Source: Eledone cirrhosa (taxonomy: Eukaryota). Taken from it: 64,000 bases of DNA. Numbering within the stretch: position 1 is the first letter of the stretch; each line of letters starts with the position of its first letter. The notes below the pieces were generated by a model. The model was not told the DNA's origin. It worked only from the letters and a program-made list of their open reading frames with translations, and searched no databases. Positions 26,516-51,505 of the stretch are shown here, one piece after another. The DNA lies in the NCBI GenBank assembly GCA_964016885.1, contig OZ024742.1:305908001-305972000 (forward strand), in the 5' to 3' direction. The position numbers and the translations under genes are program-made.

Positions 26516-27180
26516 GGCTGTTTCTTTGTTTACAAACAAACAAACTGAACATTATAATAAATGTTCGATAAACCGATACGTGCATATATATATGTGTGTG
26601 CATGTATGTATATATATATACATACTACTGTACGTCTGTATACATATATGTATGTACGTATACATACATACTTACATTTAAGTAAGTGCCGTACTAAGAA
26701 TGAGAAATGAAATTTCGTTTAATTCTATTCCATTTATCGTTTTCGGTATGCCCGGCCGACTGAACTCACTTGACATGCAAATTAGGCTGCTCAGCCGTTA
26801 ATATGCATAAGGAAAGTATATACTTTCAGACGTTCAACCGTCTGACAGGAAGGTATACGATGCTGACGATAGCTAATACGCTTGAAACTAGTACATCGTT
26901 CCTGTGTTAGTGTTGAACAAAAAGGTGACGTGGTTGCCTAAACACAGTACGGCGTAAATCGAGGCTGTTTGTTTGTTTACAAACAAACAGAGCATTATAA
27001 TAAATGTTCGGTAAACCGATACGTGCATATATATATATGTGTGCATGTATGTATATATATACATACTACTGTACATCTGTATACATATATGTATGTACGT
27101 ATACATACATACATACTTACATTTAAGTAAGTGCCGTACTAAGAGTGAGAAATGAAATTTCGTTTCATTCTATTCCATTT
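26516..27180 (+). mobile_element. retrozyme-like unit (~447 bp, ~1.5 copies)
   Basis: ~220-bp direct repeats 26516-26736 and 26963-27180 around a hammerhead; ends in (TA)n; no ORF. Confidence 0.7.
26857..26899 (+). ncRNA. minimal type-I hammerhead ribozyme
   Basis: ACGATG-CTGACGA-t AGC taatac GCT t-GAAA-CTAG-TA-CATCGT; palindromic stem III; ACAGGA/TCCTGT extends stem I. Confidence 0.88.
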
Positions 27181-27200
27181 ATATATATATATATATATAT

Positions 27201-27647
27201 CCCTTGCTTCTGTTGGACATCACCAGAGGGCGTTAACCCACCGGTGTTTGCATAGCTGCGGCTTCCTAAAACCGTATTTCCTTGGATATACGAAATACTT
27301 ATACCTATTGTATAAAGCTATGCTTGAAGTGAAATCCTATTTCTATTTTCTTATAAGTTGAGCCAACTTATGCAGCTTCATATGGAAATGAGATTAATCC
27401 CCTCATTTACACAAACGAGAAATGTATATATTTTCGCCTGTCTTCTAGTCCAGCAGTCGCAAGCGGTGGGAGGGACCGTCCTGACGAAGGCCAGTTAAGC
27501 CTGAAATGCATAGACGGTTGTCCCCCTTGCTTCTGTTGGACATCACCAGAGGGCCCACCAGTGTTTGCATAGCTATGGCTTCCTAAAACCGAAATACTTA
27601 TACATATTGTATAAAGCTATGCTTGAAGCGAAATCCTATTTATTTTT

Positions 27648-31470: not shown

Positions 31471-31823
31471 CAAATACACGAAGTAGAATTAGCCACCAAC
31501 AAAAACCAAAAGACATATATATATATATACTATAAAGTATGTCCATAGAATCATTTGATAATATATATACACCATTTCCTCTCCCAATTAGCATAATCAA
31601 CCACACAAAAAATTAATTAAACCAGGCTATAAGATTAAAAGGCACCTATGAAGAAATAGTAGATAAATAAACGACAGCAATCTATTCGGGACCAACCGCT
31701 ATAGAATATTTACCCAACATTACAATAGCACGTGGAAATCGATTAAATATACCGTCAACCATACACAATTAGGTACAAAATAAAAGTTAGAAGAAAAAAT
31801 GCATATACACATACTAGGATTAT

Positions 31824-31904
31824 ATTTCTACCCTTAGGGTTTCGTTCGCTTTTGGAAATATCCTATCAAGGATAAAATCTCGAGCTTCGAACTCATCAGG
31901 AAAC
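31824..31904 (-). ncRNA. type-I hammerhead ribozyme with expanded stem II
   Basis: Minus: GTTTC-CTGATGA-GTTCG [insert] CGAAC-GAAA-CCC taa GGG-TA-GAAAT. Confidence 0.85.
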
Positions 31905-32420
31905 AAACTCATTTTGACAAAGAATTTTCTTAAGTGATCCCCGCCAGAAACGAATCCAAAATGGCTAAGAACTGTGATGTGGCAGTGGTCAAGTCAGAAA
32001 GAATGTGATTGGTTGCTTACGGCGAGTGGGCTGATTGTATAGAAAGCGCAGCCCAATATTGCCCAAATTGCATCTTAACCTTATGGGAGATTATTAAATA
32101 TAAAGATTTACATATACACAAACTAGACAAAGTCACATATATAGATGTTTTGGCAAACATTCACGATGTGGCTCAATGATGAATTAATAAATTAAATAAT
32201 CAGAGCAATATACTATAAAGTATATATATATATATGACAAAGAAAATGTGGTAAGAAACCAGGTGGACCATAACGCACCAGAGTACTCGATACTTAGGAT
32301 AGTAGGGTGAGTAATAGGAAAAGAGTCAGGACCCCGACGGCTGAGGTCCGGCGGTTTCGACAGCTAGAATCGAACTAGATGTCGAAACGGCCGGAGCTCA
32401 GCCGTCGGAGCCCTGACTCT

Positions 32421-34738: not shown

Positions 34739-34812
<74 letters not shown>

Positions 34813-34813
<1 letters not shown>

Positions 34814-35185
34814 CCAGCCAGGAGTGACCGATATGTTGGCATGACCCAGGACAGGTTCAAAACCAGATTTTATGCACATGTCGCTTCTTTTAAACACCCT
34901 GATAAAAGAACAGCAACGGCTCTCGCAAATAAGGTGTGGGAATTCAAGGATAAAAACATCCCGTACTCTATCGATTGGTCTATTTTAGACCATTCGAGGG
35001 AGTACCAAAGGGGCACAAAGAATTGTTCTTTGTGTACCACGGAAAAATTTAGGATTTTACAAAACTTGAAAGCCACTTCAACTTGCCTGAACTCCAAGAC
35101 CGAGATCTTCAGATGTTGTCCTCACCTGAAATCACATCTGATCTGTAACTGGATTGACATTCCTACAATGACTCAACCACCTTGA
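34813..35185 (+). pseudogene. PLE GIY-YIG endonuclease 3' fragment
   Basis: YVGMTQDRFKTRFYAH...TALANKVWEFK...CSLCTTEK...LNSKTEI..CPH; 5' truncated at (TA)n. Confidence 0.85.
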
Positions 35186-35752
35186 ACTTGTTCTCTGCTC
35201 TCTACGCCTTACATCCACTACGATTTTTATTTCTCTCTGAACTCACTTGCTGTACTCTTTTATTCTTTTTCTCCCTTATCTCCCCTTGTATTTAAACATT
35301 TTACTATGTTATTTATTTTTTATATATTTTCATATATGTGTATATGTTTTATATATATATATAATAACCATCAAAACGGCTTGAGCTCTGCCGTCGGGGT
35401 CATACTTTTTCCTATGTATATGTATATATATATATGTATGTGTATATATATATATATATATGTGTGTGTATTTGTATGGTTGTCTTTGTGTATGTGTGTG
35501 TATGTGTAAATATATATGTGTGTATGTGTATATATATATGTGTGTATGTATGTGCTTAATTACATACAGAGGGATTAAATGTTTATTTTCATTGATCATT
35601 TGCTCCAGGAACTTGTTGAGTGCTCTAAATCAGCTATAAACATTTATACATTTATCTATTTATTTATTTATTTATTATTTGTCGTATTCCCAACTATTTG
35701 TTTACCCCTTCCACCTTTTTATTTTTATATATATATAATATTTATGTATTTT

Positions 35753-35795
<43 letters not shown>

Positions 35796-35835
35796 GTTTT
35801 TTAAAAATCCAATTCAATAAATAGACCAGGATTTT

Positions 35836-35895
35836 TTTTATTCTGATGATTGAAAGCAACATTTTTTGCTTTTAAGAAACCACTGGTAAATGGAA
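35836..35895 (+). ncRNA. type-I hammerhead ribozyme downstream of the PLE fragment
   Basis: TTTTATT-CTGATGA-TTGAAAGCAA catttt TTGCTTTTAA-GAAA-CCA c TGG-TA-AATGGAA. Confidence 0.82.
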
Positions 35896-36130
35896 TAATT
35901 GCCTTATGTTGTTTATTACATAACTATATATATATATATATATATAATACACGCACATAGAACAAACAACCAACCAGTAACATGTAAATAAACAAATAAA
36001 TAAACAAATATAAACACACACAGACACCCGGATGTAACACATGCGCAAACTAAGCACACAACACACACAAAAACAAGATGGCGTAGGACAGAACAAAGGA
36101 GAGGCACAAAAACAAAGAAAAGAATCCCCA

Positions 36131-36173
36131 GTCACTGAAGAGGTAACAGAATGTGTGACGAAAGAACTTTGAC
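36131..36173 (+). ncRNA. degenerate hammerhead ribozyme
   Basis: GTCA-CTGAAGA-(imperfect stem II)-GAAA-GAAC-TT-TGAC, inside a ~240-bp unit with short direct repeats (TAGAAC..CAACCAACC at about 35958 and 36198). Confidence 0.5.
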
Positions 36174-36660
36174 AATATATAAACAATCATCTGGTTGTAG
36201 AACCAAGCAACCAACCGGAAATTTATAAATTCCTAAATTTATAAATTTATTATAATAAATTGAAGTGAAACTATGGTGCTTGTGTTTCTTATTGGCAACA
36301 TGACCCTCCCAAAGTATAACAATATATATATATATATATATATGTATATATCTGTGTATGTATGCGTGTGTGTATATATATATACATATATGTATGTAAA
36401 TGTATGTGTATATATGTGTATGTATAATTATATATATGTATGTATATGTGTGTGTATGTATTTATTTATTTATATGTATGTATGTGTAGGCGTAAATATG
36501 TGTGTATTGCTTACCACGCGTCTTTGTTTATTTATTTCTGTCCGTTCCTGTATCGCTGTCAACGTTATAATAACGTTTATTATTTGTTATTTTCTTAAGT
36601 CGTATATTTTTTTTTATTTTGATGTGACGGCCTTTTGTATTATATAATTATATATCTACC

Positions 36661-37235
36661 GTAAGTTAATTTTTAATTTTAAAAATTTTCTTATTTTACG
36701 TCTTTCATATAATTGTTCTGCATCCCCCTGCATAGAACCACAAAGGTACTAAGACATAACATATATATTTGCTAGCATGAGTATACATCTGTATACATAT
36801 GTTGGTAGATATACTAATTCTCTATATTTATCTCCAAATTATTTGTTGAGTAAAACTTGCCAAAATTTACTGCTGTGATTCACGGTAGTAGTAGGCTATT
36901 GTCATAATACCACCCCACTCCTCACTGATTAACCTCAGTGTCACGTGATTGATCCTTTAAAATCTGCCACTGACCAAAGAGGCAGTGAATTTTTTCAGTG
37001 CTTTGGAATTTAGTCCCCGCTAGCTTTGTTCCATCCACTGAATTATTATTTTTATATGGGTTCCTAGTGTCCGCGCATTGCCTGGGAACTTAGCTGAGAA
37101 TAGACTCCCTGATGACGTAAGGAATTCTCTATAGTTATCTTACGTAACTATATTTATCCCCTTAAAGGAACTAATTAGTTGGAGTGAAAATTTTAGTAAG
37201 TTAATTTTTAATTTTTAAAATGTTCTTATTTTACG

Positions 37236-37240
<5 letters not shown>
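36661..37240 (+). mobile_element. ~535-bp unit with ~45-bp terminal direct repeats and a degenerate hammerhead (37104-37185)
   Basis: GTAAGTTAATTTTTAATTTT...TTACGTCTTT at 36661 and 37196; ACTCC-CTGATGA...GGAA-CTAATTAG-TT-GGAGT (GAAA mutated to GGAA). Confidence 0.55.
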
Positions 37241-37297
<57 letters not shown>

Positions 37298-37474
37298 AGA
37301 AGCAAAAAATAGCTTATTGTAATCCAGTTTTTGGTTAAGAAAGCCAGTTTCTTGGATGGTTTCAACGTACGGTTAGGGGTAACTCCACAAGTTTGTAAGA
37401 ATTCCGTTCAATCTTGGAGTATAAGTATAAAAGAGAAAACACAGGTAAGCATTAAGAGAAGGATTTAATCCAGG

Positions 37475-37576
37475 TATTTACGACCGTTTCATTGGTAAGT
37501 GCAACCTTATATTGCTATACTGCAAATAGCAGCCACTTAATTATAATTGTTGTTCACAGTCCAAATTTTCAAAATA
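37475..37576 (-). ncRNA. variant (U3-A8) hammerhead candidate in the PLE pseudo-LTR
   Basis: Reverse complement of the 43978-44079 motif. Confidence 0.5.
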
Positions 37577-37951
37577 GTGATTTACTCTTGAAATAGTTTT
37601 TAATATATAGAGAAAAACATTTATTTGGAATTGTATTTACTAGTATAGAGAGAGAGGAATCAGGAGGTGAGAGGACAGACGGCATAGTATAGAGAGAGAG
37701 GAAGGGGGAAGAGGTAGGAAGTAGAATGACAAACTGAGGGGGAGGTAGGGGTAGAGATGGAAGTATTCTTTGGTCAGTTTTGATAGCAGACATCATGTCG
37801 TGGAGTGTAGTGAGTTAAGGAGAATTAAATAGATAATAGTGGGAGGGAGGGATAGAGAGGGAGAGAGGGAGGGGGGGGGGGAGATATAAAGAGATAAATA
37901 TATATATATACACACATACATACATACACATACACACATATACACACACAT

Positions 37952-37992
<41 letters not shown>

Positions 37993-38037
37993 TATATACA
38001 TACATACACACACACACACATATACACATATATATAT

Positions 38038-38116
<79 letters not shown>

Positions 38117-38329
38117 GATAATAATGACAAAAATAAAAGCAAAGAAGGGGTGAGAAGGAAGAAAGGAAAAGATAGCCAAGAAGAGGGAAGGAAGGAAGAA
38201 AACGAAGAAATAGAAGAGGAATGAGGGAGAAAGTGGGGGGGATATATATATTGGTTTTGTGGGTAATTAAAGGGTCTAGATATAAGAGGGTATAAAGTCT
38301 AAGTATATGCAGTTTGTCAGTTGGTAGTG

Positions 38330-40560
38330 AGAGGTTAAGTGTTCGATTTGTAGTGCGAACATTTCTCTTTGAGTCTATGGTTACAATAAATTGATCTCTC
38401 AATTTTATTGTTGAGTAACCTATTCTTCGAACTTCAGATGTGGAACAGCTCAAGGTTGCATAATCGACAGCTTCTCATACCACTCCGATATGGGGGCGCG
38501 TTTGATAATTTTTTCCTCTTCAGGGTGTATTGATGGTTACTTTCCCTCAGTTGCCAGGTCTTGTTTGCAAGGGTAGTTACATAACGGTGCTGGGAATGTT
38601 TCATTGCGTAACGGTGTGTATACCAACGAGCTTTAAAAGTATTCCCAGTCGCTCCGATGTAATACCATTTCTGGTGTCTGATTCCACTGTGCATTGGTAA
38701 ACCAGGTTAGACTGCATACATTCATTTTGTAATGGACAGGTTTCAGGTAGGTGGCAGTTGCATTTCTTGTTATGGGCAACTTTGGCATTATTTGTGGGCT
38801 GCGATGCCTGAACAAGTGTGTTACGTTTTGTTTGCCTATTAGCGGGTGTTTGTGTATTAGATATTATGTTGTGTTCGGTGGTAATTGTATTGTTATTGTT
38901 GTAAATTTGTGTTTTGGTGTAGTTATGTATCTTTTTAGCGTTAAGCATCTTAACGTGTGCTTCTATATTTGGTGCCGTGGAGTAGGATAGTCTAATAGAT
39001 TTAGTGTTAAGGATTTTGCTGTATCTATGTGAATCCGGAAAGTGCCTATTTATTATTCTAAAGAAAGTAGAGGGTAGGTTAGTACTAATAGAGGTGTTAA
39101 ATATGGGGTTATACCAAATATATTTTCTACTGCGTGACTTGTTTGATTTCGATGTTGTACTTCTATTTGCCGTATACTTTGCGGTTCTATGCGTAAATAT
39201 GTGTATGCGTGTGTTTCTGGAGTTTGTGTTATGCGTGTTCGTGTGTGCTTAACAGAGGCTTTCATCTATATATTCTACTCTATCTAAGTGGCCTGCCTTG
39301 TCTAATGCGGTATTGTAGTATTCTGCATGTTCTTCGAAGATTTGCCGGTTAGATGAGAGGCGGGAGATCCTAAGGGATATGCTGCGTGGAATGGATTTAA
39401 TTATTGATAGTGGGTGGTTTGAGCTACAGTTGATGTATGCTAAGTTCTCATTAATCTTGTAAAAAGGTCTTATAAGTCCCGTATTTAGGTTAAGCGTCAC
39501 ATCTAGAAAGTTAACTGTTTTAGTGCTTTAATGATAAGTTATGCTAAGGGCTAGTTTTCCGAGAGTCTTTCTAATACTCTTACGGAGTCTTTCTATGCTC
39601 TGGTTATTTAGGTTCTTAACTAGGAGAAGGGCGTCGTCTCTGTAGATTCCACCGTGAAGGTCGCTAAACTCGCTTTGTAAACTATGGGCTATGTAAATAC
39701 CTACTAAGTCTGTGACTTGAGCCGAGTCGTTAGCCCCCATCGTGATGTCAAAGTTATTTAATCTATCCTTACGTTCCCAATAGGCGTTTTCAAATTTAAT
39801 TATTGTTTTCCTAGCAGCTAGTATGATTTTTATCTCGTCGTCTGTTATGTCAGAATTGGCTTTGGCGAATGCTAAGGCTTTATCTAAGGTGTTGGGGGAT
39901 ATAGATGAGTAATAATCGTTAATGTCAAATTGTATAAATTTAGATACTTCCTTGTTAGCTATATTGTTAAACCATTTAATTGTTTCGGTAGCGTTACCCC
40001 ATAGTTTAATCACTAGTTTATTCTTCATTTGTGCTATCACTCTGTCTAATATATGTTTACTAATTTTCCCGATGTCCGATTTAGATGGGCATATAAGTCT
40101 AATAGTCGGGTTATAATCAACATTTACCTTGTGGTCCTTGAGGTTAAATGTGGGGGTACATGGCTTAAGTCGTCTATTCCTAGGTGTTTGACTATATTGT
40201 GTGCCTCGTTGTTGATGTTTATCAGTGCCGCCTCATTTGTTTTTTTGTATTTCCTATGTAATTCTTTCCGTATGAAGCTATTGTATGTATTAACATCCAT
40301 CGTATACACATTGGTGGTTCGCAGCTTTTTTATGAATGTATTTATGTCATTCTGGAGTTTATTATTCCTCCGATTTTTGAATTTGATATTCATAATCATC
40401 TTCAGTAAGTCCTGTTCAAAGACATCCAGTTGAGGGTTGGTAGGTGGGTTTTTACACGATTTGAAGCCGTACGTTTCCTTGTTATATTCCACGGTGCGAC
40501 CATTACGTGCTTTGTCGAAATGGAAAGTTTTCCATCTAACTCTGCGTTTTCCATCTAACT
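38330..40560 (-). pseudogene. PLE polyprotein (RT + GIY-YIG), frameshifted
   Basis: FDINDYYSSI, ITMGANDSAQVTDLVG, YRDDAL, SNHP, CNCHLPETCPL..ECMQSNLVY, YIGATGNTFKARW, CRLCNLE. Confidence 0.92.
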
Positions 40561-40591
40561 TTGCTTTTATTTTTGTCATTATTATCTTTAT

Positions 40592-40667
<76 letters not shown>

Positions 40668-40901
40668 TTAGAAACACACAGATACATGCGGACACACACA
40701 TATATACATGAATGCATCCGCACCCAACTGTGAGTTAAGGGTGCCAACTTCACCGATGTTGCTCAATGAATGACTGGGACAGACCAATTCAGTTTGAACC
40801 AGACTAAACCAGTATCAGAGTTAAAAATACATTATGAAGAGAGAAGAAACATTTAGATATAATTAGTAATAAAATGTATCATACCTAAACTGTTCCTAAA
40901 T

Positions 40902-40989
40902 TCCTCGACTACGTAGTTTCGTGGCATAAACAAAAACAATATATCAAAGATATAGAGTCCTTGCGAGGTCTGCCGACTTATCAAGAGGA
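40902..40989 (-). ncRNA. hammerhead ribozyme, U3-A8 core variant (array copy 1)
   Basis: Reverse complement of 42373-42460. Confidence 0.75.
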
Positions 40990-41492
40990 TACCTCATTTT
41001 ACTAGTCTCAAGAACGCGTCTACACGACGTGAGAAAGAATCCCAAAAGGCGGAGGGGGAGATAGTCACGCGATATAACGGTCGAGAAACAGAGCTAAGCC
41101 TCTTATAACCACGAAAAAAATACCACGGAGGCGGAGGGGGTATTCATATCGAGGCCGTAGAAGAGGTAGTGAAGAAGGCGAGAAGTATGAGTAATGGAAG
41201 CTTTCCAGTTGTCCCCACACTTCAAAGATTGCTCGACCAGAGGGAGTTATTAATACATTTAGAAACACACAGATACATGCGGACACACACATATATACAT
41301 GAATGCATCCGCACCCAACTGTGAGTTAAGGGTGCCAACTTCACCGATGTTGCTCAATGAATGACTGGGACAGACCAATTCAGTTTGAACCAGACTGAAC
41401 CAGTATCAGAGTTAAAAATACATTATGAAGAGAGAAGAAACATTTAGATATAATTAGTAATAAAATGTATCATACCTAAACTGTTCCTAAAT

Positions 41493-41580
41493 TCCTCGAC
41501 TACGTAGTTTCGTGGCATAAACAAAAACAATATATCAAAGATATAGAGTCCTTGCGAGGTCTGCCGACTTATCAAGAGGA
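41493..41580 (-). ncRNA. hammerhead ribozyme, U3-A8 core variant (array copy 2)
   Basis: Reverse complement of 42373-42460. Confidence 0.75.
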
Positions 41581-42372
41581 TACCTCATTTTACTAGTCTC
41601 AAGAACGCGTCTACACGACGTGAGAAATAATCCCAAAAAGCGGAGGGGGAGATAGTCACGCGATATAACGGTCGAGAAACAGAGCTAAGCCTCTTATAAC
41701 CACGAAAAAAATACCACGGAGGCGGAGGGGGTATTCATATCGAGGCCGTAGAAGAGGTAGTGAAGAAGGCGAGAAGTATGAGTAATGGAAGTTTTCCAGT
41801 TGTCCCCACACTTCAAAGATTGCTCGACCAGAGGGAGTTATTAATACATTTAGAAACACACAGATACATGCGGACACACACATATATACATGAATGCATC
41901 CGCACCCAACTGTGAGTTAAGGGTGCCAACTTCACCGATGTTGCTCAATGAATGACTGGGACAGACCAATTCAGTTTGAACCAGACTGAACCAGTATCAG
42001 AGTTAAAAATACATTATGAAGAGAGAAGAAACATTTAGATATAATTAGTAATAAAATGTATCATACCTAAACTGTTCCTCCGCATGTATCTGTGTGTTTC
42101 TAAATGTATTAATAACTCCCTCTGGTCGAGCAATCTTTGAAGTGTGGGGACAACTGGAAAGCTTCCATTACTCATACTTCTCGCCTTCTTCACTACCTCT
42201 TCTACGGCCTCGATATGAATACCCCCTCCGCCTGCGTGGTATTTTTTTCGTGGTTATAAGAGGCTTAGCTCTGTTTCTCGACCGTTATATCGCGTGACTA
42301 TCTCCCCCTCCGCCTTTTGGGATTATTTCTCACGTCGTGTAGACGCGTTCTTGAGACTAGTAAAATGAGGTA

Positions 42373-42460
42373 TCCTCTTGATAAGTCGGCAGACCTCGCA
42401 AGGACTCTATATCTTTGATATATTGTTTTTGTTTATGCCACGAAACTACGTAGTCGAGGA
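42373..42460 (+). ncRNA. hammerhead ribozyme, U3-A8 core variant (array copy 3)
   Basis: TCCTC-TTGATAA-GT c GGCA [insert] TGCC AC-GAAA-CTACGTAG-TC-GAGGA. Confidence 0.78.
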
Positions 42461-42962
42461 ATTTAGGAACAGTTTAGGTATGATACATTTTATTACTAAT
42501 TATATCTAAATGTTTCTTCTCTCTTCATAATGTATTTTTAACTCTGATACTGGTTCAGTCTGGTTCAAACTGAATTGGTCTGTCCCAGTCATTCATTGAG
42601 CAACATCGGTGAAGTTGGCACCCTTAACTCACAGTTGGGTGCGGATGCATTCATGTATATATGTGTGTGTCCGCATGTATCTGTGTATTTCTAAATGTAT
42701 TAATAACTCCCTCTGGTCGAGCAATCTTTGAAGTGTGGGGACAACTGGAAAGCTTCCATTACTCATACTTCTCGCCTTCTTCACTACCTCTTCTACGGCC
42801 TCGATATGAATACCCCCTCCGCCTCCGTGGTATTTTTTCGTGGTTATAAGAGGCTTAGCTCTGTTTCTCGACCGTTATATCGCGTGACTATCTCCCCCTC
42901 CGCCTTTTGGGATTCTTTCTCACGTCGTGTAGACGCGTTCTTGAGACTAGTAAAATGAGGTA

Positions 42963-43050
42963 TCCTCTTGATAAGTCGGCAGACCTCGCAAGGACTCTAT
43001 ATCTTTGATATATTGTTTTTGTTTATGCCACGAAACTACGTAGTCGAGGA
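42963..43050 (+). ncRNA. hammerhead ribozyme, U3-A8 core variant (array copy 4)
   Basis: Same sequence as 42373-42460. Confidence 0.78.
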
Positions 43051-43119
43051 ATTTAGGAACAGTTTAGGTATGATACATTTTATTACTAATTATATCTAAA
43101 TGTTTCTTCTCTCTTCATA

Positions 43120-43183
<64 letters not shown>

Positions 43184-43214
43184 ATATGTGTGTGTGTGTG
43201 TATGTATGTATATA

Positions 43215-43250
<36 letters not shown>

Positions 43251-43255
<5 letters not shown>

Positions 43256-43609
43256 GAAGATAAACACAGAATATTCGAAAATATTCTGTATGTTTATAAT
43301 AAACATTTTGAAGACCTAATCGCTATAGAATAGAATACGTCACGTATTACAATTTGAGATTCTCGATAAAAGCAAGGGAAGTAACCTACGCGTTTCATTC
43401 TTATTAGAAATCATCAGGATTACATATCCAGTGCTTTTATCGAGAATGACACAGCTAGAGACTTATAGAATACTTAGCTGTGTACAGGAACTGGTTTGAA
43501 AGAGCGGTTGCCGGTCCGGCAGAAATTAGAATTTGGATTTAATGCTCTGAAATAGCGATATATATATGTGAAGATAAACACAGAATATTCGAAAATATTC
43601 TGTATGTTT
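43251..43609 (-). mobile_element. retrozyme-like ~314-bp unit with 45-bp terminal direct repeats
   Basis: TATGTGAAGATAAACACAGAATATTCGAAAATATTCTGTATGTTT at 43251 and 43565; contains a hammerhead. Confidence 0.7.
43381..43423 (-). ncRNA. minimal type-I hammerhead ribozyme
   Basis: Minus: GTAATC-CTGATGA-t TTCT aata AGAA t-GAAA-CGCG-TA-GGTTAC; enclosed by a 16-bp inverted repeat 43359-43374/43432-43447. Confidence 0.88.
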
Positions 43610-43977
43610 GTGTGTGTATATGTGTGTATGTGTATGTATGTATGTGTGTATATATATATTTATCTCTTTATATCTCCCCCCTCTCTCTCTCTGCCTCTCT
43701 ATCCATCCCTCCCACTATTATCTATTTAATTCTCCTTAACTCACTACACTCCACGACATGATGTCTGCTATCAAAACTGACCAAAGAATCCTTCCACCTC
43801 TACCCCTACCTCCACCTCAGTTTGTCATTCTACTTCCTACCTCTTCCCCCTTCCCCTCTCTCTATACTATGCCGTCTGTCCTCTCACCTCCTGATTCCTC
43901 TCTCTCTATACTAGTAAATACAATTCCAAATAAATGTTTTTCTCTATATATTAAAAACTATTTCAAGAGTAACTCAC

Positions 43978-44079
43978 TATTTTGAAAATTTGGACTGTTA
44001 ACAACAGTTATAATTGAGTGGCTGCTATTTGCAGTATAACAATATAAGGTTGCACTTACCAATGAAACGGTCGTAAATA
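43978..44079 (+). ncRNA. variant (U3-A8) hammerhead candidate in the inverted pseudo-LTR
   Basis: TATT-TTGAAAA-t TTGG [branched insert] CCAA t-GAAA-CGGTCG-TA-AATA. Confidence 0.5.
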
Positions 44080-44140
44080 CCTGGATTAAATCCTTCTCTT
44101 AATGCTTACCTGTGTTTTCTCTTTTATATATATATATATA

Positions 44141-45263
44141 TAGCTTAGAGTTTAGACTCAATGGGGTCATTTACAATCATTTCAGCTCTAAGAATCGCTT
44201 CTGAGCAGAATAAATTAATATTTGATGAACATTTACATGTTTTAGTTGCAATTGACTAATAAAATCGCTAGAATGAAATATCTTAATTCAACAACTTAAA
44301 GTTTGCCTGTACGATCTAAAAAATAATAAATCACTACTCACAGACTCATATGGACAATTAGTTAATTATTTCACTATTATACCATCCTTTGTGAAACATG
44401 TTTGAAGTTTGAAGTTCTGACCGATCTGCGGAAAAAGTTTGTATTTTGAATTTTAAACGTGTCTAGGTACAAAGGCTTTTTGCCCATATGAGTCTGTGAG
44501 TATTGATTTATTATTTTTTAGATCGTACAGGCAAACTTTATGTTGTTGAATTAAGATATTTCATTCTAGCGATTGTATTAGTCAATTGCAACTAAAATAT
44601 GTAAATGTTCATCAAATATTAATTTATTCTGCTCAGAAGCGATTCTTAGAGCTGAAATGATTGTAAATGACCCCATTGAGTCTAAACTCTAAGCTATTTA
44701 TCACTGCTCCCCCAGGTGAGCTGAATTTGTAATCCCATATAAACGGCTGTTATTTCTAGCACTATGTGTGGGACGTTAGAGGACTGGAATAAGCCGTGTG
44801 CAAAACCTCATGTATTTTCGCTACGCTAACCAGACCTTAGATATTTTTCTGAGGTGGAGTTTTGTAATTTTATCTGGGTACCTATTGATAAACACAGAAA
44901 AAGTTGATTAACTCACTGCTAATTAGTTAATTATTTCACTATTATACCATCCTTTGTGAAACATGTTTGAAGTTTGAAGTTCTGACCGATCTGCGGAAAA
45001 AGTTTGTATTTTCAATTTTAAACGTGTCTAGGTACAAAGGCTTTTTGCCCATATGAGTCTCTGAGTATTGATTTATTATTTTTTAGATCGTACAGGCAAA
45101 CTTTATGTTGTTGAATTAAGATATTTCATTCTAGCGATTTTATTAGTCAATTGCAACTAAAACATGTAAATGTTCATCAAATATTAATTTATTCTGCTCA
45201 GAAGCGATTCTTAGAGCTGAAATGATTGTAAATGACCCCATTGAGTCTAAACTCTAAGCTATT
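44141..45263. repeat. 564-bp-period direct repeat with an inverted ~215-bp copy
   Basis: 44357-44699 repeats at 44921-45263; 44141-44357 is the reverse complement of about 44480-44696. Confidence 0.9.
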
Positions 45264-45371
45264 TTGAAAATGTTATTTATTCATTATAAAAATTAAATGA
45301 TACCATTCTATATGTAGGTATGCCCCTTCATCTGACAACTAATACTTTTAGATCTAGACCGCCAATGTATA

Positions 45372-45488: not shown

Positions 45489-45610
45489 AATATAGATGAG
45501 ATTCTACAGGACTAGAACTGTTTCATTCTTTAGAAATCATCAGGAATTCTGATTCCTGATGATTTCTAAAGAATGAAACAGTTCTAGTCCTGTAGAATCT
45601 CATCTATATT
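45489..45610. ncRNA. perfect palindrome of two divergently oriented hammerheads (45500-45548 minus, 45551-45599 plus)
   Basis: GATTC-CTGATGA-t TTC taaa GAA t-GAAA-CAG ttctagtc CTG-TA-GAATC; 59-bp arms, 4-nt loop. Confidence 0.85.
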
Positions 45611-50930: not shown

Positions 50931-51381
50931 CTGTTGATTTTTGGCATATAGTTGATTAGTTTAAGAGAAGTTCGAAGATAATTGTAAGATATGCACTCAG
51001 TATTTTGAATCTGTCTACAGAATTCTCTAGACCTCTGTCACTTAGTAGAACCTTAATGATTTTAGCTTTTAAAGAATCTCCCTTTTCTTTAATTCTATCG
51101 ACCATGAGTGACCCCCCACTGATTTTATGGACATCTGTTAGCTTAAGAGAAACTTAATGACAAGGAATGGTATGCCATCCGGAACCTGTTTATAGAATTC
51201 TGTCTGCCCTTGTTACTCTAAAAACATAAATAAATAAAAATAAAAATAAACTATAGCTTTGTAGAATTAGCTTTTAATGAATTCCCTTTTCTATCAACCA
51301 ATGACCTACACCCATCCCACTCCCCACCCTCTCCTACCACTTGTAGAGACCTATAAATACCATTTTTATTTTTTGATACCC

Positions 51382-51429
51382 AGATTCCTGATGATTTCTA
51401 ATGAATGAAACAGTTCTAGTCCTGTAGAA

Positions 51430-51432
<3 letters not shown>
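51382..51432 (+). ncRNA. type-I hammerhead ribozyme (same family as 45551)
   Basis: AGATTC-CTGATGA-t TTC taat GAA t-GAAA-CAG ttctagtc CTG-TA-GAATCT, then (TA)n. Confidence 0.85.

Positions 51433-51505
<73 letters not shown>

Follow-up and report, generated by a model that had tools for sequence, protein, structure and literature searches.

A Hydra-like Penelope element of Eledone cirrhosa interrupted by two younger hammerhead repeats, and the pairing of tailed and untailed ends in three TA-targeting families

The Hydra clade of Penelope-like elements (PLEs) is described in the text of Craig et al. 2021 (PMC8557442) as targeting TA repeats and as having inverted arms, often with a tail at one end. 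Animal retrozymes of the type without long terminal repeats (LTRs) are, according to the texts of Cervera and de la Pena 2020 (PMC7229834) and of Li, Clavereau and Pollet 2026 (10.64898/2026.07.22.740005), non-coding tandem units of low GC content with one type I hammerhead motif each, dispersed in the genome and found beside PLEs, which have been proposed to mobilise them. For the Poseidon element PAc in vitro, the text of Frangieh et al. 2024 (PMC11167929) reports two start sites for the reverse transcriptase (RT), with both target strands cleaved and extended. We have analysed a microsatellite-rich stretch of 64,000 nucleotides (hereafter the window) from the 3.0 Gb genome of Eledone cirrhosa, in which elements of these kinds are nested. 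With a probability of roughly 85%, we read it as a Hydra-like PLE present as head-to-head arms, with two younger hammerhead repeats, of 591 and 314 bp, interrupting the two longest TA runs of one arm's internal tract, likely placed there by Penelope-type enzymes able to cut every long (TA)n. The nested elements belong to known kinds, and the part worth testing is a rule by which their ends are paired.

The host element and its two inserts

The sequence-only reading of this stretch had claimed that the 3' region of the PLE recurs inverted in three pieces around two inserts, and alignment bears this out. When 40662-43124 and 43251-43609 were deleted by script, the remainder was collinear with the reverse complement of 37420-38144, in aligned blocks of 34/34 (40559-40592), of 32/32, 46/50 and 71/72 (43125-43250) and of 39/39, 27/27 and 444/459 (43610-44134). 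In the unique part of the arm the inverted copy has 470 matches and 14 mismatches to the 3' copy (470/484 identical), and the compound TA/TG interruption pattern of the tract is preserved over both insert breakpoints. The 591 insert is placed in the longest TA run, which is (TA)32 in the 3' copy and is seen here as flanks of (TA)31 and (TA)26. The 314 insert is found where the second TA run ends, with (TA)12 vs 13 and 7 reference bases unpartnered. The 31 + 26 repeats at the 591 site may reflect either a target duplication or slippage of 32. Both gaps hold the repeats that had been described, at internal (TA)n, with two corrections: the supposed plain array of 591-bp units consists of two arms that meet head-to-head at 42079 (unit 236 to unit 31), with the unit order 1-591, 1-591, 1-236 along the window in the left arm and 31-1, 591-1, 591-166 in the right arm, and the 314 unit is followed by a further 45 bp. 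The host PLE is nearly full length and is broken just past the ORF (open reading frame) start; the 133-bp tail is found on its 3' arm, and the inverted arm is without one.

The two host arms are 2.9% apart, with four derived variants in common and 6-7 private ones each in about 470 bp, and because of the common variants they likely represent one insertion event that later aged. The 591 monomers have 7 differences in 2434 bases from the family majority (0-3 per monomer), the 314 unit, which has no changes beyond subfamily marks, shows 100% identity across 306 bp with a copy from a different contig, and both inserts are less than 0.3% from family or subfamily sequence. Since this is far below the divergence of the host arms, both inserts are much younger than the host. 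The ordering of events by divergence that had been proposed for this locus is thus obtained for host and inserts; it does not separate the 591 from the 314 insert, both being near zero divergence and in different runs.

These private changes also bear on the possibility that the inserts were already in the RNA template, through a source PLE with an interrupted upstream pseudo-LTR (pLTR) or through template jumps, and arrived with the host in one event. The footprint of the inserts is that of the host, and some junctions have the extra templated bases that template jumps leave behind, as would be expected from such a history. However, the changes private to each host arm have few or no counterparts in the inserts, each insert has its own primed ends in TA, and where several PLE copies contain the same insert family, these inserts are 90-95% alike or point in opposite directions and are therefore taken to be independent. 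We therefore regard arrival in a single event as very unlikely.

The host is assigned by its motifs to the Hydra-like Penelope elements. The pieces of RT and of a C-terminal GIY-YIG endonuclease are in order in the window, and frames of 789-918 aa are found elsewhere in the family, while a Pfam search gave no score for the ORF fragments of the host in the window. RWK is present in the window copy, and DKT, the modified form of DKG found in 3/3 translated copies of the same family, has gone from it with a deletion of about 33 bp. The CxCx5C linker is present, with CxxC and CxH around conserved E and N in place of CCHH, and this arrangement is plainer in an intact ORF of a sister family. The C-terminal endonuclease, RWK, DKT, the linker, CxxC and CxH, the (TA)n targets, the inverted 5' arm and the tail at one end are all common to the host and to the Hydra clade as characterised in the text of PMC8557442, from which the host differs in a unit of about 3.4 kb (vs generally under 3 kb), a tail of 133 bp (vs 30-40 bp), an internal compound microsatellite copied with the element and a hammerhead-like motif that is only weak and of the U3:A8 kind.

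Copies of the host family are inserted in (TA)n, with direct or inverted pLTRs and a tail, and fuller copies read arm, 133-bp tail, 146-bp leader, ORF, 3' region, tract, arm and tail. The family has 941-1638 candidate places genome-wide, with arms about 3% apart between loci. Its pLTR motif, U3:A8 with a 4-bp helix I, has both core halves intact in 55/72 copies scored and is not the minimum-energy fold; a canonical hammerhead core is found in 11/12 copies of the sister family. This younger sister, also Hydra-like, has frames of 776-784 aa with a mean identity of 98.8%, and at its loci L261-L272 (e.g. G000:C2:84784000-84791500) many intact 784-aa frames and two end classes were observed; on its sequence it is a candidate active element.

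The 591 and 314 families are dispersed genome-wide, with at least 629 and at least 478 candidate places, and are flanked by TA tracts at other loci as well. A 591 array is present in one of 20 control stretches of 10 kb each. The units have GC contents of 41% and 34%, and 40662-43609 contains no ORF of 100 aa. A motif scan, which gave no matches in shuffled control DNA, finds a type I hammerhead motif in every 591 and 314 monomer. The 591 motif has U3:A8 replacing C3:G8, and its helices I and II lie within the minimum-energy fold, with pair probabilities of 0.78-0.93. This replacement has been reported as naturally occurring covariation with activity in vitro (Perreault et al. 2011, PMC3088659, as given in its text). 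The present repeat, in whose motif it is fixed, is from an animal, has a high copy number and contains a long insert in helix II; an unrelated PLE at locus L176 has U3:A8 as well. In contigs of other runs, 314 variants keep helix I paired by our own reading, and one closes a mismatch at the base of helix II. Both inserts are likely to be non-autonomous retrozymes, as predicted from motif and organisation. They have in common with those of PMC7229834 and of the preprint the features named in the opening, while the 591 unit exceeds the 150-450 bp that the text of PMC7229834 gives for retrozymes and has a U3:A8 core. Head-to-head arms, fixed tailed and untailed ends and TA targeting are seen here and are not described in the text examined of either paper; the words 'inverted' and 'microsatellite' have no occurrence in PMC7229834.

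Some further signals were not taken as support. Loose-threshold microRNA matches in Rfam mostly track microsatellites and inverted repeats, the folding z of the monomers (-3.5 and -5.5) comes from only 30 mononucleotide shuffles, and the contigs of monomer size in run X1 (621 and 340 bases) are no evidence on RNA circles, as tandem DNA predicts them equally. One 314-family arm, at L104:3608-3891 (G000:C3:158910500-158915900), has its truncated end joined to a few telomere-like GGGTTA repeats.

Table 1. Features of the nested locus, in window coordinates (HH, hammerhead)
Feature	Position	Strand	Remarks
Left outer (TA)26 target tract	37241..37292	none	
Host PLE 133-bp tail (long end)	37293..37425	-	full copies continue into 146-bp leader and ORF start
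3' pLTR arm, unique part	37426..37895	-	weak U3:A8 HH-like motif 37580-37470
Internal compound (TA)/(TG) tract of 3' arm	37896..38110	none	uninterrupted; used as empty-site reference
Host PLE 3' region with broken RT and GIY-YIG ORF	38111..40547	-	Hydra-type motifs RWK, CxCx5C linker, CxxC...CxH
Head-to-head junction of host arms	40548..40558	none	short duplicated ORF-start sequence, about 12 bases
Inverted arm, piece 1	40559..40661	+	34 bp unique and TA run
591-bp HH repeat, left arm	40662..42079	- (as listed)	2.4 units, outer end at unit position 1
591 left arm HH motifs, U3:A8	40895-40994, 41486-41585		
591-bp HH repeat, right arm	42079..43124	+ (as listed)	1.8 units, outer end at unit position 166
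591 right arm HH motifs	42368-42467, 42958-43057		
Inverted arm, piece 2, middle of internal tract	43125..43250	+	
312/314-bp HH repeat, single arm	43251..43609	-	1 unit and 45 bp
314 minimal type I HH motif	43375-43427	-	predicted cut after 43387
Inverted arm, piece 3, to short tail-less end	43610..44128	+	weak U3:A8 motif 43974-44084
Right outer (TA)9 tract	44125..44142	none	followed by another two-armed, 565-bp repeat

Other repeats were noted in the window. The 565-bp repeat (44136-45264) abuts the right outer tract and occurs in L049 too; it reads reverse 346-125, then 1-565 and 1-344, with both outer ends at about unit position 345, and the motif scan gave no convincing hammerhead in it. 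To the left, the 3' part of another Hydra-like PLE (34812-37240, + strand), with an endonuclease end, a hammerhead motif at 35833-35900 and nine (TA)5+ runs, stops at the left outer tract. Decayed elements of the long interspersed type with RT and endonuclease remnants lie at 19.7-24 kb, 55-59.7 kb and 60.6-64 kb, and type I hammerhead motifs that belong to other families, no denser than the background of this genome, at 26853-26905, 27471-27524, 31817-31909, 45546-45606 and 51378-51438.

End pairing in three families

The loci compared with the window, here and below, were the best-scoring search matches in the genome and not a random draw, which has to be counted against our interpretation; the exception is the 20 control stretches mentioned above, which were taken at round coordinates. 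In each of the three families the outer ends lie downstream of the hammerhead position, at one of two fixed points: 0 or +133 bp in the host, unit positions 166 or 1, which are two similar motifs separated by 165 nt, in the 591 family, and unit 1 or about 281, separated by about 32 nt, in the 314 family. When an insertion has two arms, its ends are of opposite class; this was seen in 23/23 of the 591 loci plus the window, in all 24 classifiable of the 26 loci of the 314 family, and in all 17 classifiable of the 23 host loci, plus the window and L087/L088. This gives one tailed and one untailed end in 24/24, 24/24 and 19/19 classifiable cases, and under an independent 50:50 choice the probability of 24/24 opposite ends is 1.2e-7. 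Single-armed copies use either end (9:5 for the 591 and 3:4 for the 314 family). A literature search, mostly of open-access papers without supplements, brought up neither a rule of strict pairing of ends nor a PLE-internal tract described as a target.

The two opposite arms of one 314 locus are 0.8% apart and carry the same subfamily marks, while different loci are 1.8% apart. The arms differ less than the loci do, and both arms of an insertion share one source haplotype. The joints between arms are mostly blunt or have extra templated bases. Annealing of two cDNAs by microhomology was rejected as a way of joining: overlaps of at least 2 nt are found at 2/23 (591) and 6/26 (314) junctions, compared with 15% and 19% of simulated random joins, so there is no excess. 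L1-style twin priming on one linear RNA was rejected as well, the 5' breakpoints of the arms being scattered and the arms overlapping in sequence. In a register test for a multimeric template the mismatch rates were similar in all registers, so that a linear multimer and a circle are not separated by it; the few variants that arms have in common lie at different monomer indices, and only the 376 variant of the window fits register 0.

Inverted arrays of this kind could in principle be assembly artefacts, produced by fold-back reads or by collapsed repeats, and the contigs of four other runs include none that spans the locus. The junction of unit 236 to unit 31 is nevertheless not a fold-back palindrome, the opposite end classes are fixed at 67 loci of three families, and short-read contigs of the other runs show joints between distant places of two arms. 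An artefact is accordingly considered extremely improbable.

The closest biochemical parallel is PAc, which shares with the present families, as far as the text of PMC11167929 goes, two RT start sites that delimit a tail, an AT-rich target, cutting and extension of both strands and a predicted dimer. In that in vitro system no difference in start site between the strands was observed, whereas here the two ends are always of opposite class.

The internal TA tract as a target

Occupancy of the internal tract, which is about 200 bp long, was assessed in 40 host-family copies found by way of the sequence upstream of it, the window's own 3' copy included. A first classing gave 22 empty tracts, 11 large and 4 small non-satellite stretches, and 3 copies without an arm within 9.4 kb; on inspection one of the small cases (L137) is a deletion, and one of those without an arm (L166) has an intact tract with a break just past it. 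The tract is interrupted in 14 of the 38 resolved copies, or about a third. L164 is probably a fifteenth interrupted copy, L167, with an arm only 91% alike, is uncertain, and L162 is outside the resolved set. The unique PLE sequence of the same copies has 0 interruptions in 39,238 bp (the break in L166 left out), and that of near-full PLE copies has 1 in 85,084 bp. In the host family, then, later insertions go mostly into the internal TA tract, which is copied with the element via RNA. The inserts are mixed, comprising hammerhead units, autonomous PLE pieces and other repeats. At L176 (G000:C5:20571000-20579000), and also at L164 and L173, the host family's internal tract contains an autonomous Hydra-like PLE, that of L176 having a 786-aa open frame and a U3:A8 hammerhead motif. 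A separate observation is that the host copies L064, L080, L090 and L242 have their start at the internal tract or within it; by pairing with the TA target, the tract may be a favoured place for 5' truncation as well. For annotation, it should be kept in mind that in such families a consensus of the pLTR will break off at this tract.

The sequence-only reading had gone further and proposed that PLEs carry (TA)n landing pads which recruit later hammerhead elements and so form self-growing hotspots. The occupancy just described, the two very young insertions in the same tract of the window and the fact that every inverted arm supplies a second tract are all in line with such autocatalytic growth. 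It was examined by one hammerhead scan applied everywhere, counting motifs in the insert of an internal tract or within 700 bp of an outer or control tract. Of the internal tracts 5/39 have such a neighbour, of the outer tracts in the host family 10/69 and of the control (TA)10+ tracts 9/64, so the rate per tract is equal (Fisher P = 1.0 under strict settings and 0.2-0.8 under two that are looser). The 3.4-kb host unit, with 3 (TA)6+ and 2 (TA)10+ runs, or 9 and 6 per 10 kb, is no richer in targets than 200 kb of control DNA, which has 16.4 and 7.2 per 10 kb, and hammerhead motifs in the window outside the present finding number 1.05 per 10 kb vs 0.9 in the control. None of 33 other 314 loci and none of 37 other 591 arrays lies in an internal tract; at L248 a 591 array is located at one of the host family's outer tracts. 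The sister family is without an internal TA tract in 12/12 copies, so the trait is not general to PLEs.

The landing pad thus stands for the host family and not for PLEs at large; both inserts of the window did come later and bear the motif, while a preference over other TA tracts, and with it the self-growing hotspot, finds no counterpart in these counts. Growth of this kind is considered improbable. The internal tract is likely, on these comparisons, an ordinary target that the host family happens to copy, with no special attraction, and the nesting likely reflects shared TA targeting.

Mobilisation and biological meaning

In the mechanism that we propose, a complex of PLE RT and GIY-YIG endonuclease would cut both strands of a (TA)n, and each of the two target ends would prime cDNA on RNA of a single source. 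One end would start just downstream of the hammerhead and the other a tail-length further on, and the two truncated cDNAs would be joined bluntly. The host would have been inserted first, bringing its own tract, which the two retrozymes would later have used like any other. The retrozyme footprint matches that of the PLEs, and because of the tailed and untailed pairing and the single source haplotype the retrozymes may be tied to Penelope-type two-ended priming. We lean, by a little more than an even chance, towards the wider view that Penelope integration in vivo is obligately asymmetric and two-ended, carried out by one complex, possibly the predicted RT-endonuclease dimer, with one subunit at the short and the other at the tailed site; that retrozymes, with tails of about 32 and about 165 nt, are direct substrates of it; and that a PLE family which copies its own target is itself interrupted in about a third of its copies.

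Several points weigh against this interpretation. The mobilising enzyme is deduced from its footprint alone: neither the host nor the L176 nor the young sister family shares sequence with either insert that would mark it as the autonomous partner, and the sister family is a candidate mobiliser by age only. The lack of a strand difference in the start sites of PAc in vitro (text of PMC11167929) does not by itself predict strict pairing. The hammerheads stand as motif calls, as Rfam at curated thresholds gave no match; the 314 unit scores 19.9 bits against HH9 (E = 0.44, below threshold) and its helix II has a pair probability of about 0.07 in isolation, and in the text of the preprint 8/9 predicted frog retrozymes were inactive in vitro. 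The searches by which the copies were collected act as a partial filter on the baseline of unique PLE sequence. Furthermore, control tracts count insertions of all ages and the PLE tract only those since the PLE spread, and with small numbers and such unmatched ages the internal tract may still have a two-fold excess of hammerhead insertions.

The nesting itself is, in our view, ordinary parasitism among retroelements that target TA. What the locus adds is that it puts a PLE and two retrozymes with the same footprint side by side, and so supports, at the level of sequence, a link of PLEs with retrozymes that has been proposed but is unproven, while the strict pairing of a tailed with an untailed end, the single source of both arms and the lack of microhomology at their joints offer a concrete constraint on the existing in vitro PLE system.

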